From a virus (lineage: Duplodnaviria > Caudoviricetes): a stretch of 34,178 nucleotides of DNA. Positions 288 through 22,783 of the stretch are shown piece by piece (position 1 is the stretch's first letter; each line of letters begins with the position of its first letter). Made by a program: the position numbers and the translations under genes. Below the pieces are notes generated by a model. The model was not told the origin of the DNA. It was given only the letters and a program-made list of their open reading frames with translations, and ran no database searches. The DNA is taken from positions 1-34,178 of the IMG/VR virus record IMGVR_UViG_3300043908_002748; one strand, written 5' to 3'.

Positions 288-878
288 ATGGCATCAGTCG
301 TCGATATCTGTAACTCAGCGCTGAACCAGATCGGTGCGTCGAACATCATCAGTTTGACGGAGGACAGCAAGGCTGCGCGGATCTGCAACCAGCGTTATGA
401 TTTTATCCGCGACTATGTGTTTCGAGCTCACCCTTGGAACAGCCTGATCCAGCGAGTGGAGCTGGCGCCAGACACAGCCACGCCGGCTTTCGAGTTTGCA
501 AAACAGTTTTCATTGCCGACAGATCCATTCTGTCTGCGGGTCCTCAGCCTCGATGATCCCGACATCATCTTCCGCGTCGAGGGCCGCAAGATCCTGACAG
601 ACGAGAGCACGATCAAGCTCAAGTATGTTGGCCGAATTACAGATCCCAACGCTTACGACACGCTGCTGATCGAGACCATTGCAGCCGCCCTGGCAGCTGA
701 CCTGGCCTATCCCCTGGTCGGCAGCGCCACCCTGGGCGCGAATATGAATGTGTTCTACCAGGAGAAACTCAAGGAGGCTCGCTTCGTAGATGCGACCGAG
801 GACAACCAGATCAACACCTCGGACACCAGCATCTCGCAAAACTTCTCGGCTGATACCTTCATCAATTCGAGGCTCTGA
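288..878 (+). CDS. Tail tubular protein A / adaptor (T7 gp11-like)
   Basis: 196 aa. Start SVVDICNSALNQIGA and the HPWN motif are typical of podovirus adaptors; synteny fits. Confidence 0.85.
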   Translation: MASVVDICNSALNQIGASNIISLTEDSKAARICNQRYDFIRDYVFRAHPWNSLIQRVELAPDTATPAFEFAKQFSLPTDPFCLRVLSLDDPDIIFRVEGRKILTDESTIKLKYVGRITDPNAYDTLLIETIAAALAADLAYPLVGSATLGANMNVFYQEKLKEARFVDATEDNQINTSDTSISQNFSADTFINSRL

Positions 879-3151
879 TGGCCAAGGCATCCCCGAGCTT
901 TAGCAACTTCACAGCCGGTGAGCTGAGCCCCCGCCTAGACGGGCGCACAGACATCCAGAAATATTTCAACGGCTGTAAGACGCTTGAGAATTTTGTCGTC
1001 CACCCGCATGGCGGCGCAAGCCGGCGGCCTGGCACGATCTTCGTCCGCGAAGTCAAGAACAGCGCACACAACGTCCGGCTGATCCCTTTTGAGTTCAATG
1101 TCGAGCAAGCCTATATCCTGGAGTTCGGCGACCAGTATTTCAGAATCCACAAGGATGGCGGCACGGTTGTATCGAGTGGCAGCCCGGTCGAGGTGACGAC
1201 GCCCTACCTCCACACCGAGCTCGCCGACATCAAGTTCACGCAATCCGCGGACGTGATGTATATCGTCCACCCCAACCATGCGCCCAGGAAGATCACGCGC
1301 ACCAGCCACACAGCCTGGACGATTACGGCTGTGGACTTCCAGCGTGGCCCGTTCCAGGACGCTAACCTAACCAGCACCACGCTAACCGCCAACGGCAGGA
1401 CCGGCACGGTGACAATCACCGCAAGCGCCAGCACCTTTGCCAGCACAGATGTCGGGCGCCTGGTCAAGCTGCACCACGGCTTTGCCAAGGTTGCCAGTTT
1501 CAGCTCGGCGACATCTGTCACCGCTGCTGTCCAGGAGACAGCTGACGGCCGGGCTGAGCTGGCGCCAAGCTACACAGCGACGACGCTGAGCTTCCATGAG
1601 GGTGACCCGTCTGCGACCGGGCTCGAGCACAATGACCGGATCCAGGACAGCGCCGGCAACTTCCTGACCCAGGGCTTTGCTGTCGGCATGAAGATCTCGG
1701 TCTCTGGCGCCGGCACCAGCAACAACAACGAAAGCGGCGCCATCATTGTCCAGATCACCCAGGACACGATGCTGCTTTCGCCCAGCGCGGATCTGACAGA
1801 CGAGGCAGCTGGCTCGAGCGTGACGATCTCAGGCGACCTGGTGGCAGACAGCAGTTTTGCCCTGGGCGCTTTTTCTGCGACGACCGGCTACCCAGCTGCA
1901 GTGACCTTCTACGAGCAGCGCCTTGTTTTCGCTTCGACAACCGAGCAGCCGCAGACAATATTTTTCTCGGTGGGTGGCAGCTTTGAGGATTTCACAGATG
2001 GTGTGGGCGCAGCTGACGCGCTGACCTACACCCTGGGATCTAATCAGGTCAACGTCATCCGCTATCTCCAAGCTGGCAGGGTGTTGTTGGTCGGCACGTC
2101 AGGCGGCGAGTTCGTGGTGACAAGCTCCGAGGATGCGCCTCTCAGCCCGACCAACGCGGTGGTCAAGCGTCAGGCAACCTATGGCTCGGCCAACATCCAG
2201 CCGGTCCAGGTGGCCAACGTCACGCTGTTCGTACAGCGCGCCAGGCGCAAGCTGCGCGAGCTGGTGTTCGATCTGAACACAGACAGCTATCAGGCGCCGG
2301 ACATGACGCTCCTGGCCGAGCACATAACGACCAGCGGCATCAAGGCAATGGCGCTTCAGCAGGAGCCGGACAACGTCGTCTGGTGCGTCCTGGAGAACGG
2401 CAAGTTCGTCGGCATGACCTACAGGCGCGAAGAGAACGTGATCGCCTGGCATGAGCATCTGATTGGCGGCAGCTTCGGATCTGACAGCTTCGCTCACGTC
2501 GAGAGTGTTGCGACGATACCTGGCGCCCTGGATGAAGATCAAACCTATCTGATCGTGAAGAGGACCATCGGTGGAGCGACTAAGAGATATATTGAATATT
2601 TTAATTTCTTTGATTTCGGAGACAATATCCTTGACGCCTACTTTGTCGATTCGGGGCTGACCTACAGCGGGTCAGCTGCAACGACGATTAGCGGCCTGGA
2701 TCACCTCGAGGGGCAGACAGTGCGAATCGTGGCAAATGGCGCCACCCACCCCGACAAGGTGGTGAGCAGCGGTGCCATCACGCTCGACTTTTCTGCAACC
2801 AACGTCCACATCGGCCTCGGCTACACCTCGACACTGCAGACCATGCGGATCGATGCCGGCGGCACAGAAGGCACGTCCCAGGCAAAGACCAAGCGCATCC
2901 ATGAGGTTACGCTCAGACTGTTCCGCACAGTGGGCGTGGAGGTCGGCAGCTCGACCAGCGAGCTCGACCGGATACCGTTCAGATCTTCGGCTGATGCAAT
3001 GGACTCTGCCCTGGCGCTTTTCACGGGCGACAAGGAGGTCGAGTTCCGAGGAGGCTTCGACACTGACGGCTTCATCGTTGTTAGGCAGTCCCAGGCGATG
3101 CCCATGACGATCCTTTCGATCATGCCGCGTCTCATAACATTCGATCAATGA
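878..3151 (+). CDS. Tail tubular protein B / nozzle
   Basis: 757 aa. Motifs FTAGELSPRLDGRTD, GGASRRPGT, FTQSADVMY, YPAAVTFYEQRL; directly follows the adaptor. Confidence 0.9.
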   Translation: MAKASPSFSNFTAGELSPRLDGRTDIQKYFNGCKTLENFVVHPHGGASRRPGTIFVREVKNSAHNVRLIPFEFNVEQAYILEFGDQYFRIHKDGGTVVSSGSPVEVTTPYLHTELADIKFTQSADVMYIVHPNHAPRKITRTSHTAWTITAVDFQRGPFQDANLTSTTLTANGRTGTVTITASASTFASTDVGRLVKLHHGFAKVASFSSATSVTAAVQETADGRAELAPSYTATTLSFHEGDPSATGLEHNDRIQDSAGNFLTQGFAVGMKISVSGAGTSNNNESGAIIVQITQDTMLLSPSADLTDEAAGSSVTISGDLVADSSFALGAFSATTGYPAAVTFYEQRLVFASTTEQPQTIFFSVGGSFEDFTDGVGAADALTYTLGSNQVNVIRYLQAGRVLLVGTSGGEFVVTSSEDAPLSPTNAVVKRQATYGSANIQPVQVANVTLFVQRARRKLRELVFDLNTDSYQAPDMTLLAEHITTSGIKAMALQQEPDNVVWCVLENGKFVGMTYRREENVIAWHEHLIGGSFGSDSFAHVESVATIPGALDEDQTYLIVKRTIGGATKRYIEYFNFFDFGDNILDAYFVDSGLTYSGSAATTISGLDHLEGQTVRIVANGATHPDKVVSSGAITLDFSATNVHIGLGYTSTLQTMRIDAGGTEGTSQAKTKRIHEVTLRLFRTVGVEVGSSTSELDRIPFRSSADAMDSALALFTGDKEVEFRGGFDTDGFIVVRQSQAMPMTILSIMPRLITFDQ

Positions 3152-3594
3152 ACGCTATCGATTACGAGGCAGTTCACCTCGAGCAGCTGATGGAGGGCGA
3201 GCTCAACGCTGGCGCTGAGCGCCTGGGCTACATGATGCAATATGCCCACCGCCTCGAGCAGCCTGGCTGGGCCTACACGGCTATCGACCAGGGCGAGGTA
3301 CTGTTTTGCACAGGCATTGTGGATATGTGGCCTGGGACTGGGGAGGTTTGGTTCATCGGCAGCCAGGATATCCACAGAAAGCCCCGGAAGGTCATCGAAT
3401 ATTGCAGGGGCGCCATGCGCCGCTGCGCCCTGGAGAACGACCTGTGGCGCATCCAAGGGGTTTGCAGGGCAGACTGGCCGAGCGCTCTGCGGTTCGCAGA
3501 GTTCTTTGGCTTCAAGAATGAGGGGCTGATGCGCCGCTATGGCCCCGAGGGTGCAGATTATTACAGGGTAGCGTGGTTCCCAGATGGGCATTGA
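3148..3594 (+). CDS. GNAT acetyltransferase-like protein (T7 gp13 position)
   Basis: 148 aa. C-terminal ALRFAEFFGFKNEG resembles a GNAT motif; sits between nozzle and internal virion genes. Confidence 0.7.
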   Translation: MNAIDYEAVHLEQLMEGELNAGAERLGYMMQYAHRLEQPGWAYTAIDQGEVLFCTGIVDMWPGTGEVWFIGSQDIHRKPRKVIEYCRGAMRRCALENDLWRIQGVCRADWPSALRFAEFFGFKNEGLMRRYGPEGADYYRVAWFPDGH

Positions 3595-4087
3595 AACAGC
3601 AATCTTCGCAGCTGCTGCTGGCAGCGCCGTCCAGGCTTATGGTCAATATCAGGCCGGCAAAACACAGCAAGCTGCTTACAACTTCAACAGCCAGATCGAT
3701 GAGCGCAACGCCAAGGCTGCCGACCAGCAAGCTGAGCAAATCCAGCTGGCAGCAGATCTCGAAGCCATCAAGTTCCGCAATGACTTCCAGCGGCTGCAGG
3801 ACGCTACCGCCCAGGCCAACCGATATAACGGCTGGATGGCTGACACCGGCACCCCGCTCAAGGTTGCCCTGGCTAACGCGACCGAGGCTGAGGAGGAGCT
3901 GGCCATAGCTGACTACAATGCCAGCATCGGTGCTGCCCAGGCTCGAGAGAGCGCTGTTCAGTCCAGGATGTCATCGCAGCTGAACCAGATGTATGGCCGG
4001 GCAGCTCGCCGGGCTGGGGTCATCAACGCCGGCAGCAGCCTCCTGGCCGGTGCGTCTAACGTCGGTTATATCAGGGCAACGGCATGA
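3584..4087 (+). CDS. Internal virion (ejection) protein, gp14-like
   Basis: 167 aa, Ala/Gln-rich and helical with hydrophobic Gly/Ala ends; synteny. Confidence 0.75.
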   Translation: MGIETAIFAAAAGSAVQAYGQYQAGKTQQAAYNFNSQIDERNAKAADQQAEQIQLAADLEAIKFRNDFQRLQDATAQANRYNGWMADTGTPLKVALANATEAEEELAIADYNASIGAAQARESAVQSRMSSQLNQMYGRAARRAGVINAGSSLLAGASNVGYIRATA

Positions 4088-5922
4088 GGGTTCCAACCTA
4101 TCAATCGCAGGGCAAGCGGACCACCGAGGTCTCTGCACGTCAGCTGAACGTCAGAGCCAACCCAGGCGCCTTGGCTGCCGAAAGCCAGGCGCTGGCAAAT
4201 TTTGGTCAGACTGCAGCCAAGGTCGGCCAGACCTGGTACGAGCAGTCTCTGAAAGCAGAGCGCGCTGGCCAGCTCAAAAGCGCAGAGAACCAGCTGGCTC
4301 AAAAATTACGGGATGTTGAGATCCAGGCGCTCAACACAGATCCAAAAGATGTCCCAACACTTTATGAGCAAGAGACGACAGCTGCCATCGCAACCATCAC
4401 CAGCGGCATCAAGGACCCTGTCGTGCAGCGCCGCTTCAAGGGCAGCGCAGCCACAGCCACACTGAACAAGAGCGTCACCATCTTCAAAGATGCGCGCCTT
4501 CGCGGCATCGATCAGAACATGGCGAGCTTCGACACGCGCATCGATGAGCGGATCAACACCATTGCAACAGGTGGCCGAGCTGATGCTCATGCGGCAAGGG
4601 TCGAGCTTTTTGGCGGCATAGCAGCTGACGGCTCCCAGGTTGCCGGCATCTTTGAGGAGATGGCTGACGCTGGCTATATCAAAGCGACAGACATTGCTTC
4701 TAGGAGGCAGACCGCAGAACAGCGCATCGACTTCCTGGGCGCACAAAGTATCCTCAACGGCGTGGCTATCCGGCGCTCAGCAGAAGATGCTGAGAGTTTT
4801 CTGATTACGCTGCAGGATCCAAAGCAGTTTCCAAACATGAAGCCTGAGAAGCGCGAGCAGCTCATCAACCGCACGAACACCCTGGCGGTGACGTTGCGCC
4901 GCGCAGCCAACGCAGAAGCTGCCAAGGCTGACGCAACTGCAGCTCGAGAGCTCAAGACAACCCAGGACACCAACTTCGCTCAGCTGATGACCCAGGTGCG
5001 TCAGTCTCGTGAAGGCGTCGAGGGCGCAGAGATGCCGACCATGCTTGATGTCATCGAGCACCAGGGCAAGCGGACGCTGACCGATACCCAGGTGACAGCG
5101 CTCGAGAAAGCTATCCTGGGACAAGACGCAGCTGCCACAAACACAGTCACGCTGGCCGGCTTTTATGCAAGACTGGATCAGGCGGAAAACCAGGAAGACA
5201 TCGATCAGCTGATGGCTGACGCGCTGACACATATTGGCCCTAATGGCGATATCCAGCTGCAGGATTTCCTGAGCCTCAACGCCTACAGCAACGGCCTGAT
5301 GGACAAGACCCCGCGCGCTATGGAGATCAAGCGGGTCAACAAGCTGCTGCGGAGCGCCATAGGTGACAGCGACGTAAACTTTGGCAGCCAGTTTGACCCC
5401 CAGTTTATGGGCCAGCTTCGAGCTGATGCCATCGACACCTATCACCAGCTCGTCCATGACACTGGCCGGGAGGATCCGCTTGAGCCGAAAGAAGCCTTTC
5501 AGATGGTCATGCGGATGTTCAACGATGCGAAGACGCAGTCGCTGACCTTCCTGGCCCCGAGCTCGACGGTTCTGGATCTGATTGCAGAAACAAATCCAGG
5601 CAACGCTCAAAAACTTAAAAAGTTCAACACTTGGACTGAGGTCGATCTTGAGAACGCCGGCAGGCTCGTTTCGGAATCTAAGAAACTAACGCCGCTGCAA
5701 AAAGCTCTTGAGCTCGAGACCCTGCTGCTTATCCAGCAATCTGTCCGCGACCGAGCTGAGGCATTGAAGCCGACCGTCGATAGCAACGCAAAGATTGGCG
5801 AGGGAGGTCCTAACGAGACGGACAATAACAAGGGCCTCCTTGAAATGCTCCAGTCCTATATTGGAGGAGGAAACGGTGGCACAACCGAGGATCGCTTGAA
5901 ACGCATAAGGGAGCGGGGCTGA
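4084..5922 (+). CDS. Internal virion (ejection) protein, gp15-like
   Basis: 612 aa, helical, starts MRVPTYQ; stop/start overlaps with both neighbours. Confidence 0.7.
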   Translation: MRVPTYQSQGKRTTEVSARQLNVRANPGALAAESQALANFGQTAAKVGQTWYEQSLKAERAGQLKSAENQLAQKLRDVEIQALNTDPKDVPTLYEQETTAAIATITSGIKDPVVQRRFKGSAATATLNKSVTIFKDARLRGIDQNMASFDTRIDERINTIATGGRADAHAARVELFGGIAADGSQVAGIFEEMADAGYIKATDIASRRQTAEQRIDFLGAQSILNGVAIRRSAEDAESFLITLQDPKQFPNMKPEKREQLINRTNTLAVTLRRAANAEAAKADATAARELKTTQDTNFAQLMTQVRQSREGVEGAEMPTMLDVIEHQGKRTLTDTQVTALEKAILGQDAAATNTVTLAGFYARLDQAENQEDIDQLMADALTHIGPNGDIQLQDFLSLNAYSNGLMDKTPRAMEIKRVNKLLRSAIGDSDVNFGSQFDPQFMGQLRADAIDTYHQLVHDTGREDPLEPKEAFQMVMRMFNDAKTQSLTFLAPSSTVLDLIAETNPGNAQKLKKFNTWTEVDLENAGRLVSESKKLTPLQKALELETLLLIQQSVRDRAEALKPTVDSNAKIGEGGPNETDNNKGLLEMLQSYIGGGNGGTTEDRLKRIRERG

Positions 5923-7319
5923 TGCAAGAGAACGATCCCATCGAGCGCTTCGTTGCAGCCCGTCATTCGCAGCGCGGCAAGTCTCTGTTCGAGCAGATGC
6001 ACTTTATGAATAGCGAGATGCCGATTGACGTGGACTATGTCTATGACAACGACATCACAGATCCTGGCAGACCATCGGCGCCAACCGAGGACGAGCTGAT
6101 CGCTGACCCACAGTTCCAGGCGGCTTCCAAGGTTGTCTTCGATGCCTTTGGTGGCGAGGGCAAAGCTGATCGCCAGTATGGCATGATGATCGGCCAGGAG
6201 CCGCCCAAGACCCGAGAAGATTACGCAAAGTGGGGCATGGAGTTCATGGGGTGGTTCAACTACAACCTCCCGCAGATGGGCATGATCGGCTATAAGGCCA
6301 GCCAGATGGAAGAGGGCGGCATGGAGCGCTTTGCCCTGTTCGAGCTGATGGAGCTGTACGATCAAAAGCAAATCAGCTGGTCCGGCACCCGTCGCTTCTG
6401 GACAGGGGTGCTGACAGATCCATCCACATATCTGGGACTTGGGACTTTTGGCATCGGGGTTGCCGGCCGTACAGGGGTCAAGACTGCAACCAAGACCGGG
6501 CTTAAAGAGGTCCTCAAGCGAAGCGCTGGCACGGCAGCCTCGCTTGAGGCCGCCGCGTATGGCGCTGCTGATGATGTCATGCGCCAAAACGTGAAGATCG
6601 GAGCCGGCCAGCAAGGCGAGCTCGACTTCACGCGAACGGCAGCAGCAGCAGCGACATCTGCGTTGCTGGGCGGATCTATCGTCAAGGGCGCGCAGTTCCT
6701 GGCAGACCAGCTGCCAACAAATCAGCTAATGAACAAGATCTATGACGGCGCAGATGAGGCCCAGGCTAATCTTGTCGGTTTTCTCAAGGAGTTTTCTGAG
6801 CGGCCTATTGAGACGGGCGAAGTTTCAATCATACCAGAGAACCAGCCCAAGGTTGTTGATCCAGGGCTCAAGGATCCCGTAACAGCCAAGAAGAAGGTCA
6901 AGCGCAAGGGCTACAAATCGCCTGAGCAGCTGAGCGACATCGTGCGCGCCGGCATCGCTGTTGATCGTCCTGACGAAGCCCAGGCATTGGTCGATAAGCT
7001 GGCCGATAATTTTGAGATTGTCGATGAAGGATGGGATGCCAAGCCTGGCGGTTACTTCGACCGCAAGGTGATGGTCAAGCTGCCAAACGGCAAAACGGGC
7101 GAGCTGCAGATCTATTCTCAGGAAATTGCTGCAGCTAAAAACGACATGCACATAATTTACACGCAAGCCCGTGACATCGAAAAAGATCCGAAACAGCAGG
7201 ATAAATATCAGGATCTGCTCAAGCAGAGTGACGCCATAGCAGCTCAAGCCCTGACAGCTGGTGCAGCGATATGGCAGCCCATCTACGACCAGATCAACCT
7301 GACGGTCCCTGGCTTGTAA
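5922..7319 (+). CDS. Internal virion protein with C-terminal RelA/SpoT-like nucleotidyltransferase domain
   Basis: 465 aa. Ejection-type segment DPSTYLGLGTFGIG plus Gly/Ala helices, then LKDPVTAKKKVKRK...DIVRA...GGYFD...GELQI...HIIY in the order of RelA/SpoT synthetase motifs. Confidence 0.75.
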   Translation: MQENDPIERFVAARHSQRGKSLFEQMHFMNSEMPIDVDYVYDNDITDPGRPSAPTEDELIADPQFQAASKVVFDAFGGEGKADRQYGMMIGQEPPKTREDYAKWGMEFMGWFNYNLPQMGMIGYKASQMEEGGMERFALFELMELYDQKQISWSGTRRFWTGVLTDPSTYLGLGTFGIGVAGRTGVKTATKTGLKEVLKRSAGTAASLEAAAYGAADDVMRQNVKIGAGQQGELDFTRTAAAAATSALLGGSIVKGAQFLADQLPTNQLMNKIYDGADEAQANLVGFLKEFSERPIETGEVSIIPENQPKVVDPGLKDPVTAKKKVKRKGYKSPEQLSDIVRAGIAVDRPDEAQALVDKLADNFEIVDEGWDAKPGGYFDRKVMVKLPNGKTGELQIYSQEIAAAKNDMHIIYTQARDIEKDPKQQDKYQDLLKQSDAIAAQALTAGAAIWQPIYDQINLTVPGL

Positions 7320-7353
7320 TTAACGCCTCCAAAAGGTAGGATTAACAGATAAG

Positions 7354-10300
7354 ATGTCGATCGATCCCAACGCTCCAGAAGCGCTGGCGAATCAGGTCGG
7401 CTTGGCGGGTGGGCTCCTTGAGCCGCTAACAGGCGCCGAGCTCACGCAACCTGATCCCAGCGCTTTTGAATTTAGCCAAGCCCCCGACAGCGAGTTCGAT
7501 CTCTTAGCCCCTATCAAAACGGTCGAGCAGGACGAGATCCAGCTGGCTATGTCTGGGCCTATCAGCAAGAACCTGGCGCGACTTATCGGCTTCGACTTCA
7601 GCGGCACGTTTGGCGATGCCGCAAAGAAGGTCGATGACATGGCGGCCAACCGGGGCAACCTGGACACCAGCGGCCGCACGGATGTCGAGGGCGAGCAGCT
7701 GACCTTCGAGGACGGCGTTTATGCTCCTTATGAGCGGGGCAGCGTTCTGCCAAATCTGAGGGCCGAGGGCGAAATGCCCAACCTTAGATTCGACAGGCCT
7801 AAGCTGGCAGATGAAGAGCGCGCTCAGATGGTCATCGAGGGCGTGGACCGTGAGGTGGAGATCCAGCCTGACGGGATGCTGGATGACTTCCGAGCTGTCG
7901 GATCCAGGGGCGATGAAAAGATCCCCGACGAGGGCCGGGTGCTGAGCACCATCCAGGCGATCAGCTCGACTTACTCGGGGCAGATCGATGAGGCCAAGCG
8001 CGGCGTGATCGAGACCGAGGCCACCAGGCAGATGGCTGACATCCTGGGGATGGACGCCAACAAGCTCTCGAGAGCAATTCTGGGGCGCAAACCTGGTCAG
8101 GCAATAAGCCTGACTGGCCCAAATGGCCAACCAGTAGGAATGGCCGAGACAATGCTGGCCTCGAGGGATCTGCTCGTCACCGAGATCAAATACCTGGACG
8201 AGCTGGCCAAGAAGGCAGAGACCGGCACAGACGAAGACGCGCTGCGCTTCCGCGAGCAGCTCGAGCTGGTCACTCAGCTGCAGATGCAGATCAAAGGCGC
8301 CCAGACTGAAATCGCTCGGGCGCTTGGTCAGTTTCGGATCCCGGCCAGGGGTGGCCAGGCTGGCGCCGCTGCAGAGACAAGGTCAGCTGACATCACTACG
8401 CTGCTCGAGGAGTATGGCGGCTCTGAGGATGTCCGCCTGATGGCCAAGGCCTATCTCGAGGCTGGATCGGTTGCAGATCGTGCTGCGATCACTAGGGCCG
8501 GCAGTAAGTTCAAAAAATTTGGTGATGCGTTTTACGAGGCGTGGATCAATATCCTCCTCAGCAATCCCATCACGCATATCAAAAACAACGTCGGCAACAT
8601 CCTGATTATGGGCGCGCATGTCGCCGAGACAGGCATGGCTGCTACCGTAGGCACCGCCAGGCGCGCTATGGGCGGCGAGGGCGGCGTCTATTTTGGCGAG
8701 GTCCAGGCACAGCTTTTCGGCGCCATGATGGCCATGCAGGATGCCTGGTCGGCATCAGGCAAGGCTTTCAAGACCGGAGAAGCGCCTATCCTGGGATCGA
8801 AGATAGACGGTCAGCGCGGGAAGCGGCCGGTCAGAGCTTTCTCAGCGGAAGGCTTCGAGGCGCAGGGTCCGCTTGGAGTCACGGCTGATGTTCTTGGCAG
8901 CGTATTTACCCTGGGTCGGGCCCCCACAAAGATGCTCGAGTTCGAGGACACCTTTTTCAAGGTTGTCGCGCAACGAATGAGCCTATACCAGCAAGCCTAT
9001 CGCACAGCCAAAGGAGAGGGCCTGACAGGCGATGCGCTGAGCTCGAGGATCGCGGAGTTCGTCTATGACCCGCCGGCATCAGCTTTGAAAGAGGCTGACG
9101 CTCACGCTAAATATGTCACCTTGCAGACTGACCTGGATGCAGCTGGCAAGGCGCTAAACGGGGTCCGAAAGATCCCAATGGTCAGATATTTTCTGCCCTT
9201 CTTTAAGACGCCTTACAACGCGGCTAAGTACGCGATGGTCGAGCGCTCACCGCTCGGCTTTGCTTACGGTGAAAGCGCAAGAGCGATCAAACGCGGCAAG
9301 GCACCTGGCGCATCACCAGCTGACAAGGCTGCAGCTGATATGGCGCGCACCAGGATCTATGTTGGCAGCATGACAATGATGACGGTCGGCATGATGGCGG
9401 CAAACGGTCAAATCACCGGCGCCGGACCAGCTGACCCTGAGCTCAAGGCCGCTCTGCGCCGTACCGGCTGGCAACCTTACTCGATCCGAGTCGGTGATAA
9501 ATATATAAGCTACGCAGGGGCTGAGCCTTTTTCCACAACCCTTGGCCTGGCAGCTGACGCAGCTGAGCTTGGCATGAGCTCGAGCCTGGATGGCGCCAGC
9601 TGGGAGCGCGCGCTTATGGCGGCTGGCGGGGCCATTTCTTACAACATGACAAACAAAACATTTCTCCAGGGATTTGCCAACCTTGTCTCAACTGTCAATG
9701 ATCCTGGTCGATATGCAAATGGCACGGTTGATAGTTTTGTGCGCTCGCTAGTCCCACGACTGATAGCCCAGACAGAGAAGGTTCAAGATCCTCTGGTGCG
9801 TGATGCCAGGTCTGTTATCGATCAGCTCAGGAGCCAGGTGCCCTGGCTTAGCAACACGCTGCCGGCCAAGCGCAACTTCTGGGGTCAGAAGGTCATGCTG
9901 TCACCGGCCCTGGGGCCGGACATGCTGAGCCCAATCTACACAAGCACCATCGGGCCCAACCCTGCAGCTGAGGGTGAGAACGCAGCTCAACGAGCCTTTG
10001 ATCTCGATCAGATGTTCATCACGCTGCGCTGGGGCCCTGGCAAGCACCCAGATGTCTACTCACAGAACGGCATTAAGGTCGGCCTCAAGCCCAAAGAGAT
10101 CGAGCAGTTCCATATCTACGCTGGTGCCAGGTCGCTCGAGTATATCGAGGAGGTGGTGGAGAACGATAACTTCCAGCGTCTATTCAAGATCTGGAACGAC
10201 GAGGTCAGCCAGCCGACAACGCTGATGGATGTCCAGATTGCCGACAAGACACTGACGCCAAGCACTAACGCCCAGGAGGCTCGTGAGCTCTGCATCGACA

Positions 10301-10452
10301 TGCTGCAGAGCGCAGTGACGGCCGCCAGGCAACAGGCTCGCCAGGATCTGTTCAATGATCCCACCTACGGGTCTGAGATAGAAAGCGCATCCGAAGATTA
10401 CATTCAGCTCATGCGAGAGAAGAACGCTAACATCAGGGATATGATGCGATGA
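7354..10452 (+). CDS. Large internal virion (ejection) protein, gp16-like
   Basis: 1032 aa. Motifs LSNPITHIKN, PFFKTPYN and GWQPYSIRVGDKYISY are typical of large podovirus ejection proteins; last gene before the fibre. Confidence 0.75.
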   Translation: MSIDPNAPEALANQVGLAGGLLEPLTGAELTQPDPSAFEFSQAPDSEFDLLAPIKTVEQDEIQLAMSGPISKNLARLIGFDFSGTFGDAAKKVDDMAANRGNLDTSGRTDVEGEQLTFEDGVYAPYERGSVLPNLRAEGEMPNLRFDRPKLADEERAQMVIEGVDREVEIQPDGMLDDFRAVGSRGDEKIPDEGRVLSTIQAISSTYSGQIDEAKRGVIETEATRQMADILGMDANKLSRAILGRKPGQAISLTGPNGQPVGMAETMLASRDLLVTEIKYLDELAKKAETGTDEDALRFREQLELVTQLQMQIKGAQTEIARALGQFRIPARGGQAGAAAETRSADITTLLEEYGGSEDVRLMAKAYLEAGSVADRAAITRAGSKFKKFGDAFYEAWINILLSNPITHIKNNVGNILIMGAHVAETGMAATVGTARRAMGGEGGVYFGEVQAQLFGAMMAMQDAWSASGKAFKTGEAPILGSKIDGQRGKRPVRAFSAEGFEAQGPLGVTADVLGSVFTLGRAPTKMLEFEDTFFKVVAQRMSLYQQAYRTAKGEGLTGDALSSRIAEFVYDPPASALKEADAHAKYVTLQTDLDAAGKALNGVRKIPMVRYFLPFFKTPYNAAKYAMVERSPLGFAYGESARAIKRGKAPGASPADKAAADMARTRIYVGSMTMMTVGMMAANGQITGAGPADPELKAALRRTGWQPYSIRVGDKYISYAGAEPFSTTLGLAADAAELGMSSSLDGASWERALMAAGGAISYNMTNKTFLQGFANLVSTVNDPGRYANGTVDSFVRSLVPRLIAQTEKVQDPLVRDARSVIDQLRSQVPWLSNTLPAKRNFWGQKVMLSPALGPDMLSPIYTSTIGPNPAAEGENAAQRAFDLDQMFITLRWGPGKHPDVYSQNGIKVGLKPKEIEQFHIYAGARSLEYIEEVVENDNFQRLFKIWNDEVSQPTTLMDVQIADKTLTPSTNAQEARELCIDMLQSAVTAARQQARQDLFNDPTYGSEIESASEDYIQLMREKNANIRDMMR

Positions 10453-13109
10453 CGGTATCAACAACCAGCAATAAGGTCAGTTTTAGTGCCAATGGCAGCA
10501 CGACCGTCTTTGCCTATAACTTTAAGATCTTTGCTGACTCGGATCTGACGGTCATAATCAGAGATGCGGACGGTGCTGAAACGACAAAGACGCTGACCAC
10601 GCACTATACCGTCTCGGGCGCTGGATCTGCATCTGGAGGCAATGTGACCTTTACCAGCGGCAACACGCCGGCCAATGGTGAGACTGTTGTCATCCAGCGC
10701 CAGCTCACCAAGACACAAGGCACCGACTACGTTGCCAATGATCCTTTCCCAGCGGAAAGCCACGAAGACGCACTGGACCGCCTGACCTTCATCACGCAGG
10801 AGCTTCAAGAAGAGGTTGATCGCTCGATCAAGGCCTCGGTGACTAACACGATTTCTGGCGCTGAGTTTACGGTCTCGGCAACTGATCGGGCCAACAAGGT
10901 CTTCGCTTTCGATGGTTCGGGCGACCTGGCAGTAACGCAGGAGCTTGGCACCTTCCGAGGCAACTGGGCTGCAAGCACGGCGTATGCGGTGCGCGACCTG
11001 GTGAAAGACACCAGCACCAACAACATCTTCATCGTAAACACAGCGCACACCAGCTCCGGCTCCCAGCCGCTCACGAGCAATGCTAACAGCGCCAAGTATG
11101 ATCTAATCGTTGATGCTGCCACTGCCACCACTGCTCAGACAGCCGCCGCGTCCAGCGCCAGCTCTGCGAGTACCAGCGCGTCCACGGCGACGACTAAAGC
11201 CTCAGAGGCATCGACAAGCGCTGCAACAGCTTCAACTCAAGCTGGCATTGCCACTGCAAAGGCGGTTTTGACTGCCGCAGACGCAGTTTCAACTGCCGCT
11301 GATGTAGTGTCCACAAATGCAGATGTAGTGACTACAAATGCGGATGCAGCGACGACCACTGCTGACCGCGCCCAAGTCAATACTGATAAAGGTGTTGTCG
11401 CAGCCGACAAAGCGACAGTGGCAGCAGACAAAGCAACGGTGGCCACTGACAAAGCTGCTGCGGCATCAAGCGCCTCTTCTGCCTCGACATCTGCCTCGAC
11501 GGCGACGACAAAGGCCGCAGAGGCATCGACTTCTGCCAGCAATGCCTCGACTTCTGAGACCAATAGTGCGTCATCGGCAACCGCATCGGCATCGTCTGCC
11601 ACGGCTGCGGCCGCAAGTCAGACGGCAGCGGCTGCCAGTGCTGCTTCTGCTGCCACAGCATTTGACAATTTCGATGATCGTTTTCTTGGCAGCCTCTCAA
11701 GCGATCCAAGCACCGATAATGACGGTAATGCACTGGTGACTGGTGCGCTGTATTTCAACACGACAGCTAACGAGATGCGGGTCTTCGATGGCGGCAATTT
11801 TATCGCCGCCACATCTGCTGGCAATGTCTCGCTTATACTCTATGAATACACGGCGACCAATGGGCAGACCACATTCTCAGGCTCTGACGACAACAGCGCC
11901 ACGCTGTCTTACACGGCAGACAATATTCAGGTGGTGATGAACGGTGTCGTTCTCGACCCATCTGACTTCACTGCTACCAACGGCACAAGCGTCGTGCTGG
12001 CCTCTGGTGCGGCTCTCAATGACCTTGTGAACATCTATGCGTTCAAGTCATTCACCACGGCTGACATGGTGAGCAAGAGTGCTGGCGGCACATTTGCTGG
12101 TGCGGTTGGCTTTAGCGGCGGCATCACTGGCGATGTTGCTTTTGACACCAGCACGCTCAAAGTCGACGCAGCTAACAATAGAGTGGGCATTTCTACTGCT
12201 TCGCCCACCGCACCGCTGCATCTCAACACCTCTGCAAGCGGCGATATCGCTATCCTTAACACCAGCGCAAACAGTGGCACAGGATTGTTTATTAACAGCC
12301 AGACAGCCAATCAAATTGATGTTGTCGGCTATGATGGTAGCGCAGCCAATGCTGTGAACATCAGGTCTGGTGGTGCGACTGGTTCAGGGTTGAATGTAAA
12401 TACCAGCAATAATGTCGGCATTGGGACGACCAGCCCTGTCAGCCAACTGACATTGGCTAACACCAGCGACATTGTATTCACGCAAAACGGCTACGGAATT
12501 TCGTGGGGTGGTGACAACGGCAGTCCAAGAATTTTCGGCACGTCCGGCGGTGCTTTAAGCTTCAAGCACGGTGGCGGTTCGACTGCTGTGACCATCGACA
12601 CCAGCGGCACCGTTTTAGTCGGATCAACTAGTTTTTCCGAAGATGGCAGCACAAACTCTATAAAAATCCATCCCGACGAAATCTTGACCGGAACCACAAG
12701 CACTTCAGCGAACACTCATTTAGGCTTTTCAAACCCGAATGGTCGTGTCGGTTCAATCATTACAAATGGGTCTGGAACAGCTTTCAATACCTCGTCAGAC
12801 TACCGCTTAAAAGAAAACGTAGCTGACATGACCGGCGCTATCACCCGTGTGAAGGCACTGGCACCGAAGCGGTTCAACTTCATCGCAGACGCCGACAGGA
12901 CCGTCGATGGCTTCCTAGCCCACGAGGCGCAAGCAGTCGTGCCGGAGGCTGTAACTGGCACTAAGGATGAAGTCGATGATGACGGCAACGCGGTCATGCA
13001 GGGCATCGATCAATCCAAGTTGGTCCCTCTCTTGACCGCAGCCCTGAAGGAAAGCATCGCCAAGATTGAAACATTGGAAGCCAAGGTCACGGCACTGGAG
13101 AACGCATAA
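10449..13109 (+). CDS. Tail fibre with T7 gp17-like N-terminal anchor and C-terminal peptidase S74 chaperone
   Basis: N-terminal anchor (EDALDRLT), Ala/Ser/Thr coiled-coil shaft, VGIGTTSP-type repeats, then TSSDYRLKENV...GFLAHEAQAVVPEAV...IDQSKLVPLL. Confidence 0.9.
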   Translation: MTVSTTSNKVSFSANGSTTVFAYNFKIFADSDLTVIIRDADGAETTKTLTTHYTVSGAGSASGGNVTFTSGNTPANGETVVIQRQLTKTQGTDYVANDPFPAESHEDALDRLTFITQELQEEVDRSIKASVTNTISGAEFTVSATDRANKVFAFDGSGDLAVTQELGTFRGNWAASTAYAVRDLVKDTSTNNIFIVNTAHTSSGSQPLTSNANSAKYDLIVDAATATTAQTAAASSASSASTSASTATTKASEASTSAATASTQAGIATAKAVLTAADAVSTAADVVSTNADVVTTNADAATTTADRAQVNTDKGVVAADKATVAADKATVATDKAAAASSASSASTSASTATTKAAEASTSASNASTSETNSASSATASASSATAAAASQTAAAASAASAATAFDNFDDRFLGSLSSDPSTDNDGNALVTGALYFNTTANEMRVFDGGNFIAATSAGNVSLILYEYTATNGQTTFSGSDDNSATLSYTADNIQVVMNGVVLDPSDFTATNGTSVVLASGAALNDLVNIYAFKSFTTADMVSKSAGGTFAGAVGFSGGITGDVAFDTSTLKVDAANNRVGISTASPTAPLHLNTSASGDIAILNTSANSGTGLFINSQTANQIDVVGYDGSAANAVNIRSGGATGSGLNVNTSNNVGIGTTSPVSQLTLANTSDIVFTQNGYGISWGGDNGSPRIFGTSGGALSFKHGGGSTAVTIDTSGTVLVGSTSFSEDGSTNSIKIHPDEILTGTTSTSANTHLGFSNPNGRVGSIITNGSGTAFNTSSDYRLKENVADMTGAITRVKALAPKRFNFIADADRTVDGFLAHEAQAVVPEAVTGTKDEVDDDGNAVMQGIDQSKLVPLLTAALKESIAKIETLEAKVTALENA
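11271..11460 (+). repeat. Degenerate 21-bp tandem repeats encoding heptads in the fibre shaft
   Basis: TAADAVS/TAADVVS/TNADVVT/TNADAAT/TTADRAQ/VNTDKGV/VAADKAT/VAADKAT/VATDKAA, flanked by two copies of AASSASSASTSASTATTKAxEASTSA. Confidence 0.85.
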
Positions 13110-18487: not shown

Positions 18488-18660
18488 AACTGATTGAGGG
18501 CTGGAAGAACGGCAAGACCTACAAGGTCGCTGAGTTCGAGACATTCGAGGAGTGCGAAGATTACTGGATGACCTTCTTCCTCCACGAGCCCAAATACAAA
18601 ACCAAGGTGATCGGCAAGACAATCATCTATTGGCCGGTCGAAGAGAAGGAGGCTGCCTGA
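18484..18660 (+). CDS. Hypothetical protein (58 aa)
   Basis: Not in ORF track. MKLIEGWKNGKTYKVAEFETFEECEDYW...EKEAA; AAGGAG RBS, ATGA overlap. Confidence 0.75.
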   Translation: MKLIEGWKNGKTYKVAEFETFEECEDYWMTFFLHEPKYKTKVIGKTIIYWPVEEKEAA

Positions 18661-19811
18661 TGAAACTAGATGTCAATCACTACCCGTCTCGGGCGAAGAC
18701 AGGGCGAGCTGCCTACTGCGTCGATACTCGCTATGTCCTCGAGGATGGCGAACAAAAGTATTTCGCCACGAAGCAAGAAGCTCATGCCTACATAACGCGA
18801 CTCGAGGACGAGCTGCAGCTCAACACAGATGGCGCCTGGGACTGGACGTTCTACGATCTGCTCGGATTCGAGAAGGACAAGCCTGTTGGCGCCTGGGTCA
18901 AGCATCTGCAAAGCGAGTACGACAAGGGCAAGATCAGCAAATCGAGCTGGTCTGAGAAACACCGTCACGCGAAAGATTTCCTGACGCTCAAGGTGAACAA
19001 CAAGAGCACCGCGCAGCTCAAGGTCCGCGACCTGGAGATGAAGCATGTCCAGCTGCAGCTGCTCGATCAGATGGCTGTCGGCCGCACCGCGAAGACAGTC
19101 AAGAACATCCTCACCAGCCTCCGCTCTATGAACCGTTACGCGATCCTGGTCGGCTGCCGGAAGACTGATCCCTGGCAGGGCGCGATTGCCATCGGCGAGA
19201 TCGAGGGCAAGGCAACAGACGGCAAGGTCGAGCGTGTCCAGCCGGCAGCGGTCAAGTCGATCATCGAGGCGATGGATCCCTGGTGGGCGCTCATGGCTAC
19301 CTTCGCCAGTTCGACCGGGCTGAGGCAGGGCGAGCAGCGCGCGCTGACCTGGGCTGACCTGGACCTGGATGGCTCCAAGGTCGATGTCAACAAAGCGGTC
19401 AAGCACCGGGCTGAGGTCGGTCCTCCTAAGTCTCCCAAGGGCTACCGGAAGGTCACGCTGCCCAGGGGCCTGGCGATCCAGCTGCGCGAGCTCTACATCA
19501 AGCGCGGCCGGCCGGCCAAGACCGAGCTGGTCTTCCCGACCAGGACGGGCGCCATCATCAGCGACAGCCGGTTCCAGGAAAACATGGACAAGGCCTGTGC
19601 CAAGGCCGGCGTCGAAAAGATCCGGTGGCACGATCTGCGACATTACTATGCCAGCCAGCTGCTGCGCGCTTTCAAGAATGACTGGTGGACGATCACCAAT
19701 CTCATGGGCCACGAAAGCGTCCAGACGACGCAAGAGACGTATGGGCACTGGATCGAAGATGATGAAAAAGATGCCCACATGCTGGACGCAGTGAGCTCGA
19801 TCTTTGAATAA
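18660..19811 (+). CDS. int: Tyrosine integrase
   Basis: Catalytic set TGLRQGE, PKS, HDLRH, LMGH, TY. Start placed at ATG 18660 after AGGAGG. Confidence 0.95.
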   Translation: MKLDVNHYPSRAKTGRAAYCVDTRYVLEDGEQKYFATKQEAHAYITRLEDELQLNTDGAWDWTFYDLLGFEKDKPVGAWVKHLQSEYDKGKISKSSWSEKHRHAKDFLTLKVNNKSTAQLKVRDLEMKHVQLQLLDQMAVGRTAKTVKNILTSLRSMNRYAILVGCRKTDPWQGAIAIGEIEGKATDGKVERVQPAAVKSIIEAMDPWWALMATFASSTGLRQGEQRALTWADLDLDGSKVDVNKAVKHRAEVGPPKSPKGYRKVTLPRGLAIQLRELYIKRGRPAKTELVFPTRTGAIISDSRFQENMDKACAKAGVEKIRWHDLRHYYASQLLRAFKNDWWTITNLMGHESVQTTQETYGHWIEDDEKDAHMLDAVSSIFE

Positions 19812-19835
19812 AACAATATGCCTTTAATGGCGATT

Positions 19836-19860
19836 AGGGCCGCGCTGGCGGCCCTTTCTA
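19836..19860 (+). terminator. Terminator between int and the convergent early operon
   Basis: AGGGCCGC-GCTG-GCGGCCCT stem followed by TTCTA. Confidence 0.65.
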
Positions 19861-19872
19861 TATAGGGGTGGG

Positions 19873-20040
19873 TCAGTAGCCGGCCATGTGTCCATCAGCT
19901 CGCTGAGCTCTTCCTGACTCCCGTAAGGCACGATCTCCTCCTTCCGCTCGCTCGAGACCCGCCGCCGTTTCTTGGCGACGGGTTTCTTTTGCTGCTTGGT
20001 GGAATCGGATCGCGAGGTCATCCAGCTGCTCAGCTGTCAT
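19873..20040 (-). CDS. Small hypothetical protein (start uncertain)
   Basis: MTAEQLDDLAIRFHQAAKETRRQ...; start overlaps the end of xis and the ORF stops just before the hairpin. Confidence 0.45.
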   Translation of the reverse strand: MTAEQLDDLAIRFHQAAKETRRQETAAGLERAEGGDRALRESGRAQRADGHMAGY

Positions 20041-20278
20041 CGACCTGGTCAGATACGAGCCGTGGGCCAAGACCCTCAGCTCCCCCAGGACTGGCCAGAC
20101 CAGCAGCTCCGCTGAGCTGCTCGATGTCCTGGCGCCGGTAGTAGTACCGCCGGCCCGTGCGGATCTTCTCAATGCCCTGGGCATCAAGGAGCCGAGCTGT
20201 TTTCTGACGCGCCGCATCACCGTCACTACCGAATAGGACAAGGCTTGCCTCCGCTGTTGTCATCATCGCGCCCACCAT
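20030..20278 (-). CDS. xis: Putative excisionase (MerR-like HTH)
   Basis: MTTAEASLVLFG...IRTGRRYYYRRQDIEQL; convergent with int; TAATG-coupled to the upstream gene. Confidence 0.65.
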   Translation of the reverse strand: MVGAMMTTAEASLVLFGSDGDAARQKTARLLDAQGIEKIRTGRRYYYRRQDIEQLSGAAGLASPGGAEGLGPRLVSDQVDDS

Positions 20279-20655
20279 TAGATTGCATCCCAACTTGTCG
20301 CGGCAGCTGGTGCAGCTGCAGGGGCTGGTGCGGGAGCGGGTGCCTGGTCTCGAGGCTTGTTCGGATAGATTGCAAAGGTCGCAACCTTGGGGAAGTTCTT
20401 CACCTCTTCGCCATCTCTGAGTGACAGCGTGATGCTGAGCTCGACGCCGGCATCAGCAAGGATCTTGCCGAGCTCGTCGCACTTGGCTTTCTGCTCGGCG
20501 GTCATCGGCTCGAAGCGCCGCGTGTCCTCGTTGAAGTCGGTTCGATACTGGATCCAGGCTGTGGCCCGATACAGGTTTGGCGCCTGATTCGGTGCGGCTG
20601 CTTTGATATCTTCGCGCAGCTTGATCTCGGCGCGGCTGAGGTGAGGCGAGTTCAT
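20278..20655 (-). CDS. Putative ssDNA-binding protein
   Basis: 125 aa with a Pro/Ala flexible tail ending WDAI; follows the annealase-like gene. Assigned mainly by position. Confidence 0.45.
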   Translation of the reverse strand: MNSPHLSRAEIKLREDIKAAAPNQAPNLYRATAWIQYRTDFNEDTRRFEPMTAEQKAKCDELGKILADAGVELSITLSLRDGEEVKNFPKVATFAIYPNKPRDQAPAPAPAPAAAPAAATSWDAI

Positions 20656-21305
20656 TTTCTTTCTCCCGTGTTGGCTTTCTCATATTGCTCGTCGTAATAA
20701 GCTCTGAGCAGCTCGAAGAGCTGCTGATCGGCAGCCTTGAGACCTTTCAGGTCTTTCATGTTGCCGCTGAGCCAGCTCGTTAGTTTCGAGGCGCCACCGT
20801 CCTCGCTGGCCAGCTTCTTGATTTTGTTCATGGCGCTGTTTGCCCAAGTCTCCCAGGGACCGCGCTCGGGCTCAGCTGCTGCTGGCTCAGGCGCCGGCTC
20901 AGGCGCAGCTGCGCGCTGCGGCCGCGATGCTTTGAAATCGTCGGCCTCTTCCTCCGAATAAACATAACCGGCTATGTTGATGAGCTTTAGGATCACGCGG
21001 TCTTTCGCGCGCTTCTCAGCCATCGCAAAAGGGTATGAGTTTTTGTTGTTGTAGGGGGTGGCTTCGCCGATAGACCATTCGACCTGGTCGCCCAGGTGGC
21101 CGGTTACCAGCATGACAACAGACTTGGTCTGTGCGTCAGCCTCGATCATCACCGGCGAATCGAAGGTAATTCCCTTGTGCGCTGCCACCAGCTCGAGCGC
21201 TTTGTGTAACACCACTGGCGTACCGTGGCAGTCCCAGACGGCGTCCTGGGGCTCGAGCTGCAGCTCCTGGAAGATCTGTTTCAGCTGCTCAGGGATTTTA
21301 GCCAT
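20652..21305 (-). CDS. Putative single-strand annealing recombinase
   Basis: 217 aa. YPFAMAEKRAKDRVILKL...VYSEEEADDF core, then a Pro/Ala linker and helical tail; in an operon with an exonuclease. Confidence 0.6.
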   Translation of the reverse strand: MAKIPEQLKQIFQELQLEPQDAVWDCHGTPVVLHKALELVAAHKGITFDSPVMIEADAQTKSVVMLVTGHLGDQVEWSIGEATPYNNKNSYPFAMAEKRAKDRVILKLINIAGYVYSEEEADDFKASRPQRAAAPEPAPEPAAAEPERGPWETWANSAMNKIKKLASEDGGASKLTSWLSGNMKDLKGLKAADQQLFELLRAYYDEQYEKANTGERK

Positions 21306-21625
21306 TGCTCGCCCCTCCCTGTAATCTGCCAGACGATCTCCTGCCGGCCTCGGTCATTCTTGGCGCGCTCGCCGCTGTCGCGGACCAGACCCATACGCTC
21401 GAGCTCGGTCAGCCTGGGCTTGACGCTGTAAAGCCAGGCGTCCATCTTTTCGGCAACCTGACTACCAGTTAGGCCAGGGTGGACTGAGGCGAGGCTTTGC
21501 AGGGCTTTGAGCCTCAGTCCACTTAGCTTGGGGGCCACAAACTCGAGCGCGAGCTGCTCGGTATCAGGGCCATGTCTGTGAGCTGTCGGCCCAGGATCGC
21601 CAGGCCAGGTGATTTCTTTCTGCAA
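21281..21625 (-). CDS. Winged-helix DNA-binding protein (start uncertain)
   Basis: GLTGSQVAEKM...SVKPRLTELERMGLVRDSGER...IVW. Confidence 0.75.
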   Translation of the reverse strand: MQKEITWPGDPGPTAHRHGPDTEQLALEFVAPKLSGLRLKALQSLASVHPGLTGSQVAEKMDAWLYSVKPRLTELERMGLVRDSGERAKNDRGRQEIVWQITGRGEQWLKSLSS

Positions 21626-21626
21626 T

Positions 21627-22723: not shown

Positions 22724-22752
22724 ATCTCATCTCCACGATTAAATCGTGAAGG

Positions 22753-22782
22753 AGCGTATGCCATCATGACAGATTACGTCAA
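22753..22782 (-). promoter_or_regulatory. Leftward early promoter with overlapping operator
   Basis: Minus strand TTGACG-18bp-TACGCT; operator-like ATGACA-GATTA-CGTCAA at 22766-22782. Confidence 0.6.
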
Positions 22783-22783
22783 G

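Follow-up and report, generated by a model that had tools for sequence, protein, structure and literature searches.

A RelA/SpoT-fold synthetase domain joined to an ejection-type scaffold in the internal virion protein block of a temperate podophage

The subject of this analysis is a gene of 465 amino acids (aa) in a viral DNA of 34,178 bases (Caudoviricetes; IMG/VR record IMGVR_UViG_3300043908_002748), referred to at its full length as the window. An earlier note, made from the letters of this DNA, had proposed that the gene fuses a RelA/SpoT-like domain to a virion ejection protein. We found that the C-terminal part of the protein has the predicted fold of a RelA/SpoT synthetase, with ATP-donor motifs like those of Tas1 and Apk2 and an unusual acceptor side marked by the words DEGW and GYFDRK. 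Domains of this kind make up a large phage family, and in this lineage the domain appears to be optional cargo of an ejection-type scaffold. Tentatively, we favor the reading that the domain is injected with the phage DNA and makes a small pulse of nucleotide alarmone. The gene and its two parts are as follows.

5922..7319, + strand, synthetase-bearing gene (465 aa): ejection-type scaffold joined to a RelA/SpoT-fold synthetase domain
6084..6707, + strand, N-terminal all-helical Gly/Ala-rich scaffold (residues ~55-262), homologous to the N-terminus of 1000-1400-aa proteins of the gp16 slot
6723..7316, + strand, SYNTH (pyrophosphokinase-fold) domain (residues 268-465), from the Tas1 profile match, VIA and Foldseek

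The C-terminal domain has a RelA/SpoT synthetase fold

The 465-aa protein itself had no family match in Pfam, PHROG or NCBIfam, and it gave no match at all, let alone one above the gathering score, to PF04607 (RelA_SpoT). PF04607 was listed for 14 of 21 homologues (E 0.085 to 9e-7) and was above the gathering score in two of the 21. A search of the PDB with the single sequence returned a chance match only. With a profile of 18 domains, the PDB search returned Tas1 (E 9.2e-9) and SaEAS (E 8e-7), and the next match was at E 0.29.

The AlphaFold2 model of residues ~260-457 showed a RelA/SpoT synthetase fold, with a predicted local confidence (pLDDT) in the domain mostly of 70-90; the protein ends 70 residues past motif syn4, in three modeled helices. 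The first 12 rows of the VIA structural comparison were all RelA/SpoT homologue (RSH) synthetases, including RelP (Z 15.8; 180 residues aligned, root-mean-square deviation 3.3), RelQ (Z 15.4), Tas1 (Z 14.4; 165 residues, deviation 3.6), SaEAS (Z 13.7) and CapRel (Z 11.7), and the first other nucleotidyltransferase had a Z of 7.2. Foldseek agreed, with Tas1 in the first row nearly tied with RelP and SaEAS. A BFVD search returned RelA/SpoT, ART-PolyVal and DdrB-like proteins of uncultured phages. The fold proposed in the earlier note is thereby confirmed at the level of the profile match and the predicted model. The fold cannot pick the product, because the structural Z of RelP and RelQ matches or exceeds that of Tas1.

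Donor motifs resemble Tas1 and Apk2, and the acceptor side differs

The five motifs quoted in the earlier note are present in the order it gave: L316-K329, D339-I345, P375-K382, G393-I397 and H410-Y413. We counted residue conservation in the best 150 of 2789 clusters (152 domains), a set in which the profile ranking favors these motifs.

6870..6896, + strand, syn1: K317 in 150/150 and K325 in 145/150 (Tas1 K305 and K313)
6936..6953, + strand, syn2, D339-x-x-R342-x-G344: D in 149/150, R in 150/150, G in 144/150 (D and R are Tas1 D327 and R330)
7023..7034, + strand, family signature D368-E-G-W371 on the acceptor-side strand: D in 149, E in 144, G in 147, W in 142 of 152
7050..7067, + strand, syn3, G377-Y-F-D-R-K382: Y in 149, D in 151, R in 145, K in 145 of 152
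7101..7109, + strand, syn4, E394-x-Q396: E in 152/152, Q in 151/152 (E394 is the catalytic E382 of Tas1)
7137..7172, + strand, syn5 region, K406, H410, Y413 and R417: K in 148, H in 126, Y in 151, R in 128 of 152

The remaining Tas1 equivalents are Y378=Y366 and K382=N370; adding 21 to the chain numbers of 6OX6 reproduces the R330, N370 and E382 of PMC12691689. The catalytic Asp and Glu, whose conservation the earlier note had made a point to check, are D339 and E394 in these rows, and Y378 corresponds to the Tyr that stacks on the acceptor in the superfamily. In a motif-independent set obtained by whole-protein search, 17/17 members keep K317, K325, D339, R342, Y378, D380, K382, E394 and Q396. 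When residues 366-383 were masked in the profile, all 54 tested domains still scored at least 25 bits, compared to 6.9 for shuffled sequences.

On the donor side, K317 lacks an Arg two positions ahead of it, which is also the case in Tas1, and K or R is found at position 315 in 6/150. Where the earlier note looked for the canonical DxxG and RxKD/ExDD, Tas1 has D-L-A-R-N and K-V-I-D-G-N, and Apk2 carries RYT at syn2 (PMC12226406). The pattern here, (G/P)xK followed by DxxR, matches Tas1 and Apk2 and differs from the RxK and DxxGxR donor site of RelA, RelQ and FaRel2. Judged by its ATP-donor motifs, the domain is of the Tas1/Apk/EAS type. The earlier note had counted DxxR and the lack of RxKD/ExDD among the departures from canonical enzymes; neither departs from all of them, and DxxR is the normal syn2 motif of Tas1 and Apk2. 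Syn3, where the earlier note saw Lys in place of His, reads GYFDRK here, GYSGVN in Tas1 and GYQSIH in RelA. RSH enzymes have SxH at this position and Apk enzymes have GxN, the Apk2 signature being GxN at syn3 together with YH at syn4 (PMC12226406). The true deviation lies on the acceptor side, in DEGW and GYFDRK.

The Apk1-like group contains (p)ppApp-only, (p)ppGpp-only and promiscuous enzymes (PMC12691689), and the products of its tested members are (p)ppApp, (p)ppGpp or the two together (PMC12691689; PMC10083569). Because the group is mixed and swapping syn motifs did not switch the product of Apk2, the product is not readable from the sequence.

The domain belongs to a large phage family

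The domain profile recovered 2789 clusters (50% identity) at E≤0.001, 1029 at 1e-10 and 237 at 1e-30. Proteins of more than 1000 aa made up 76 of the best 150. We scanned 33 of these 150, chosen with a bias to long proteins, for fused domains. A named virion or polyvalent domain was present in 23/33, six had only PHROGs of unknown function, and four had nothing. The companions were ddrB-ParB (8), ART-PolyVal (6), LPD38 (4), DUF2213 head protease (3), portal (2) and MuF (1), in addition to internal virion protein (IVP) PHROGs of the phrog_6651 type. PF04607 was listed in none of the 33 (one protein had a sixth family beyond those displayed), and this accounts for the family being mostly unannotated. 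A recognized tail-tube or fiber gene was found in 53 of 64 distinct loci.

Several members have unusual architectures. P0027 (2287 aa; an LPD38 ejection protein) and P0028 (1042 aa; a MuF protein) each contain two tandem synthetase domains of the family. In P0063, P0065, P0069, P0084 and P0093, the domain is fused to portal proteins or to polyproteins of the DUF2213 head protease that also contain a NUDIX, ART, phosphatase or GNAT domain.

The DEGW-GYFDRK subfamily was absent among 50,697 records of cultured phages; the sole match, in Bordetella phage PHB04, was distant and has GYRDLM at syn3. Neither the subfamily nor a synthetase joined to an ejection protein of a podovirus was described in the literature covered; members may be listed in the supplements of Iyer 2017 or among the 1,369 Apk1 homologues of PMC12691689. 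The DEGW-GYFDRK domains form a large, mostly unannotated and apparently unstudied phage family.

The gene lies in the ejection-protein block

The position claimed in the earlier note, inside a block of ejection genes, was borne out by the neighboring genes.

288..3151, + strand, tail tubular A and B genes (phrog_394, phrog_376), upstream border of the ejection block
3148-3594, + strand, IVP-A-like gene (phrog_308 'internal virion', E 6e-10)
3584-4087, + strand, IVP-B-like gene (phrog_418 'internal virion', E 2e-7)
4084..5922, + strand, 612-aa gene, IVP-C/gp15 slot by synteny
7354..10452, + strand, 1032-aa IVP-D-like protein (phrog_6651 'internal virion', E 4e-43)
10449..13109, + strand, tail fiber (PF13884 and tail-fiber PHROGs), downstream border of the ejection block

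The 612-aa gene had no family match in the Pfam, PHROG and NCBIfam scans. The 1032-aa protein resembles Syn5 gp45 and other proteins annotated 'internal virion protein D'. The 465-aa gene encodes a large helical protein between IVP-B and the tail fiber, in keeping with a podoviral ejection protein. Greip, an HTVC010P-type phage, has the same layout of three large genes, with a 421-aa 'internal virion protein' without the enzyme in the slot.

The 612-aa and 465-aa genes are translationally coupled: the ATG of the 465-aa open reading frame (ORF) overlaps the preceding stop (TGATG at 5920-5924), and AGGGAG, resembling a Shine-Dalgarno sequence, lies ahead of it at 5908-5913. The ORF is intact, and comparison with eight relatives indicated purifying selection on both halves, with ratios of nonsynonymous to synonymous substitution (dN/dS) of 0.06-0.08 in the N-half and 0.10-0.27 in the C-half. 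A competing gene on the opposite strand was ruled out, as stops are present and no long ORF runs across the synthetase domain. There were no promoters or terminators above chance within 3500-11000.

Some related loci differ in this block. In the slot upstream, Greip gp7 (L196:23062-25311) has an annotated pesticin lysozyme domain, for which the 612-aa gene has no match. In L031:6892-10152, the homologues of the 612-aa and 465-aa genes, of 493 and 444 aa, seem to be truncated or to have a frameshift where they meet, and small ORFs separate them; the cause would be sequencing error or decay. The 38-kb contig L048 (PAOW01000004.1) contains this same block of phage structural genes and lies in a metagenome-assembled genome labeled Methanobacteriota (one GTDB match), probably a binning artifact rather than a sign of an archaeal host.

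The synthetase appears to be optional cargo of a gp16-slot scaffold

The N-terminal scaffold is 46% identical over 154 residues (E 2e-40) to the N-terminus of LUZ100 gp47, a protein assigned to the T7 gp16 slot by synteny alone (PMC10134795). Among 33 longer scaffold homologues (1012-1372 aa), the synthetase was found in none, and seven matched the 1032-aa neighbor. At more distant viral loci (60 of 80 kept, from 182 found), the synthetase was absent from 59/60, eight of these genes being truncated at the edge of a contig, and one long gene usually began with the scaffold. Because the scaffold homologues are long, mostly lack the enzyme and in some cases also match the neighbor, the 465-aa gene and the 1032-aa gene would together correspond to one gp16-slot protein elsewhere. 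The synthetase would then be optional cargo of the scaffold.

The scaffold is linked to IVP-D through this fusion with the 1032-aa neighbor in relatives. We found no sequence or structure match between the scaffold and solved T7-type ejection proteins in the PDB. Folded alone, the N-half was all-helical (pLDDT 76) and had no clear structural relatives: the best VIA row (Z 7.4) was to a membrane helix pair, and Foldseek gave none at E≤0.001. Neither a weak Atlas lead to P22 gp16 (0.83) nor a PDB match at E 2.7 was counted as evidence. Podoviral IVPs are known to host domains bound for the cytoplasm (PMC4819975).

Different synthetases occupy the same slot

In a tree of 55 scaffolds, all 11 synthetase-bearing scaffolds fell in one supported set together with one enzyme-less protein on a long branch (98/94); a strict one-clade test gave p 0.047, and long branches were present. 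In the domain tree (52 rows), nine of the 11 domains formed one clade (100/99) and the P0154 domain was in another (99/97). Forcing the P0154 domain together with the nine was rejected (p 0.014 in a quick test and 1.9e-6 in a careful one), P0154 being a long branch. The later domain trees leave out L034 and PHB04, which had long branches (7.3 and 4.9) and an unreliable placement in the first tree.

The gene L034:2372-4222, on the same contig as L103, has the same scaffold, slot and neighbors, and its domain is of the canonical RSH type (RxK, DxxGxR, GYRATH). This domain matched PF04607 with 36.6 bits, its best PDB matches were RelA and RelQ, and there was no small gene downstream. A further protein with the same scaffold, P0022, has a different C-terminal domain (residues ~250-496; weak phrog_2579 match). 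This domain contains a VTIYRA motif that, by eye, we take to be ART-like.

A survey of the slot for swapped enzymatic domains, as the earlier note had suggested, thus returned L034, P0154 and P0022. By these trees and motifs, one scaffold lineage appears to carry three distinct synthetase lineages. The simplest reading would be one gain of the synthetase slot, followed by at least two replacements by other synthetase lineages. Retention of a synthetase in the slot while the synthetase itself is exchanged points to selection for its reaction.

The genome is that of a temperate podophage

Genes for an integrase and a CI-like repressor are present in the record, which is rated 99% complete, as are those for terminase, portal, the tail tubes, internal virion proteins and a tail fiber. 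The portal shares 61-63% identity with the portals of HTVC010P-type pelagiphages, which are the closest to it. This is the genome of a temperate podophage whose portal is of the HTVC010P type. The ORFs scanned contained no RNA or DNA polymerase.

The region 18552-23780 contains the integrase, leftward recombination-like genes and a CI/Cro pair, in an HTVC010P-like backbone at 57% GC. The genome may be described as that of a temperate relative of pelagiphages with a presumed higher-GC host. At the record junction (34178/1), ~792 bp are missing compared to L018; they hold the greater part of the major capsid gene and the beginning of the gene that follows it.

No antidote gene was found

The earlier note saw neither a hydrolase nor an antitoxin gene, and our searches agree with it. 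The HD_4 hydrolase model matched nothing in the genome, and among 14 control genomes it matched 11. Nor did a phage hydrolase query return anything, although it was a single sequence that divergent hydrolases could escape. Downstream of the 465-aa gene there was no iapK/tis1 or aph1; the next gene is that of the 1032-aa IVP. No pZFD antitoxin was seen in cis or adjacent: the protein ends in its three modeled helices, and the gene has no small neighbor.

The same holds for most of the related loci, which are mutually related and were covered for 7-10 kb on each side. There were 64 distinct synthetase genes, 59 of them complete with a next ORF. That ORF was large or cut off in 55/59 and shorter than 200 aa in 4/59. 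The PHB04 locus, one of these four, served as a positive control for cassette detection.

In PHB04 (MF663786; L050:9326-14031), the portal gene is followed by that of a 493-aa RelA/SpoT-domain protein with a 'hypothetical' annotation, then by a 69-aa gene and by those of an HD hydrolase and of a phosphatase. This cultured phage thus has an Apk2-like cassette, with GYRDLM at syn3.

The N-terminal 170 aa of the 1032-aa protein occurred in 49/131 synthetase-bearing loci and in 0/64 others, a difference confounded by kinship, as the bearers are also the nearest kin.

Comparison with known systems

Tas1/Apk1 of Pseudomonas aeruginosa (PDB 6OX6), a (p)ppApp synthetase of a type VI secretion system, shares with this domain the donor-site pattern and a C-terminal H..Y..R helix. 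It differs in its PAAR delivery domain (no PAAR match was found in the 465-aa protein in the Pfam scan), in its Tis1 immunity gene and at syn3, and is ~20% identical. Apk2, fused to MuF in temperate phages (PMC10083569; PMC12226406), shares a C-terminal synthetase on a virion protein and a DxxR-type syn2, and family member P0028 is itself MuF-fused. Apk2 differs in having a MuF domain and iapK/tis1, often with aph1, whereas the protein here occupies a podoviral IVP slot with DRK at syn3 and QIY/QIW at syn4; neither PF04233 nor TIGR01641 matched the 465-aa protein, and both matched P0028. The 465-aa protein therefore looks Apk2-like in architecture without being an Apk2 member. Apk2 has been characterized as an enzyme, and its role during infection is unknown (PMC10083569).

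That RelA/SpoT domains in phage polyvalent and MuF proteins mediate an alarmone-like response on entry was proposed in 2017 (Iyer et al., PMC5512222). The same role is proposed here, and the ddrB-ParB, LPD38 and ART-PolyVal companions of those polyvalent proteins recur in this family. The available portion of that paper places its domains in (pro)phages from Spirochaetes and from epsilon-proteobacteria and in MuF fusions, and DEGW-GYFDRK was not noticed in it. The companions occur in the long relatives, whereas the 465-aa protein has only two domains and no LPD match.

SaEAS (the second PDB match), VpEAS/RelV and AaEAS (PMC12691689; PDB 8VX3) are synthetases without immunity genes, and they differ in being exported from bacteria by Sec or the type VII secretion system. 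The export domains listed for EAS enzymes in PMC12691689 are Sec, WXG/LXG, XopAD, MuF, DUF4157 and Rhs/PAAR, and no podoviral ejection protein is among them. FaRel2 and CapRel have the same fold and possibly a similar reduced basic patch, but they have RxK/DxxGxR and a pZFD antitoxin, and neither is present here; by its donor motifs, the 465-aa protein appears not to be a tRNA-targeting toxSAS. Podoviral IVPs with cargo (T7 gp15/gp16, epsilon15 gp15-17, N4 vRNAP, H66 gp60; PMC4819975) share the block and the principle of a domain destined for the cytoplasm, and the cargo here differs in being a pyrophosphokinase-fold domain.

Proposed function and alternatives

We tentatively favor, while giving it somewhat less than an even chance, an injected low-dose pulse of nucleotide alarmone, (p)ppApp and/or (p)ppGpp. 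The protein would be made from the late operon, and a few copies would be packed into the head. It would be ejected with the DNA alongside the IVP-C-like and IVP-D-like neighbors, and the domain would reach the cytoplasm and move pyrophosphate from ATP onto a purine nucleotide. The result would be a short, sub-lethal pulse before phage gene expression. That the protein is packaged and ejected seems probable, that the domain is catalytically competent very probable, and that its acceptor is a free nucleotide fairly likely. Exposure of the domain to the cytoplasm behind the Gly/Ala-rich helices at 236-262 is speculative.

The purpose is likewise speculative: a small dose of pppApp might lift the stringent brake of a starved host. 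Alternatively, a (p)ppGpp pulse could bias the choice between lysis and lysogeny. Because no polymerase was found among the ORFs scanned, the phage would need host RNA polymerase immediately. In vitro, pppApp activates E. coli rrnB P1 and counteracts (p)ppGpp (PMC6491832).

In support of an alarmone product, Tas1 was the best PDB sequence match and the first Foldseek row, and the putative donor motifs are Tas1/Apk2-like. The conserved basic residues R381, K382, K406 and R417, alongside a non-toxSAS donor site, also speak for a nucleotide acceptor. The lack of an antitoxin would be most simply explained by low activity or dose, by expression confined to the late operon just ahead of lysis, and by sequestration while the head is being assembled. 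Control by low dose or location is plausible because the EAS enzymes without immunity genes, whose toxicity is avoided by compartment (PMC12691689), give a precedent.

Several observations weigh against this reading. The model is as close to RelP and RelQ (Z 15.4-15.8) as to Tas1 (14.4), and exchanging syn motifs left the product specificity of Apk2 unchanged (PMC12226406). In alarmone synthetases, the acceptor patch is large and basic (PMC11782079); here, none of the residues 364-379 is conserved as basic, and the Tyr has an added acid on either side, as judged from sequence charges only. Cytoplasmic toxicity is strong in all tested Apk1-like enzymes, and those from phages come with immunity genes (PMC10083569; PMC12691689), of which there is none here. 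As for delivery, LUZ100 gp47, which the scaffold matches, is an IVP by synteny only, and the strongest hydrophobic segment is weak as a membrane span (Kyte-Doolittle 1.1).

The main alternative, which we consider unlikely, is that the ejected pyrophosphokinase uses the 3' end of an RNA (tRNA CCA or some other RNA) as its acceptor, in place of a free nucleotide, and acts on translation at entry. The acidic acceptor signature (DEGW, D380) and the absence of conserved basic residues at 364-379 resemble the reduced positive patch of FaRel2 (PMC11782079), and CapRel is a structural match (Z 11.7). Yet the donor residues of FaRel2, R64/K66 and D90-G93-R95 (PMC11782079), form a pattern absent from the family, and the domain profile matched no tRNA-targeting toxSAS in the PDB. 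R381, K382, K406 and R417 may rebuild a basic patch, and a block of translation would harm the incoming phage. The earlier note had listed alarmone synthesis and tRNA pyrophosphorylation even-handedly; the donor motifs favor the first and make the second less likely than that.

It is less probable that the domain serves only to bind a nucleotide or as a structural module, or that the protein is not ejected, with no alarmone-type reaction at entry. No structural match links the N-half to solved ejection proteins, and Greip gp6, in the same slot, had no significant match to the scaffold profile (E 0.066). Set against this are the near-invariant catalytic positions, also kept in 17/17 of the motif-independent set, the purifying selection and the repeated fusion to unrelated virion proteins.

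Comparably doubtful is an acceptor new to the fold (ADP-ribose, an oligonucleotide messenger, a cofactor or the 3'-OH of the entering DNA), with a non-toxic role in counter-defense or end protection. The syn3 word is unlike both GxN and SxH and is fixed over ~150 clusters, and 55/59 loci have no immunity gene. Domains of the ART, NUDIX, phosphatase and ParB-like kinds are among the co-cargo, and the MuF and portal fusions would put the domain at the DNA end. However, no SYNTH domain tested in the cited literature uses such an acceptor, a diverged motif is no proof of a new substrate, and co-cargo of this kind is typical of polyvalent proteins generally (PMC5512222). In a bolder form, which we also hold to be unlikely, the DEGW-GYFDRK domains would be widespread, virion-only, antitoxin-free pyrophosphokinases of aquatic phages with an acceptor new to the fold (a defense messenger, or the end of an RNA or of the entering DNA), and an exchangeable slot dedicated to a synthetase would be kept by one lineage of podoviral ejection proteins because hosts counter the enzyme.

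We give little credence to a potent Apk2-like toxin that kills or stalls non-lysogens or aids lysis and is held by an unrecognized inhibitor (the 1032-aa N-terminus, the protein's own scaffold or a small unlinked gene), for which the Tas1/Apk2-type donor motifs, the lower toxicity of full-length Apk2 compared to its domain alone (PMC10083569), the many small window genes without a family and the restriction of the first 170 aa of the 1032-aa protein to synthetase-bearing loci can be cited, though these loci are the nearest kin.

Implications

A toxin-immunity reading cannot explain an antitoxin-free family, which points instead to a benefit for the incoming phage. The domain, of ~200 aa and able to stand alone, opens the question of its product to a direct test. 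A new acceptor would extend the chemistry of RelA/SpoT enzymes. If the product is (p)ppApp or (p)ppGpp, phages would set the alarmone levels of their hosts before expressing any gene.

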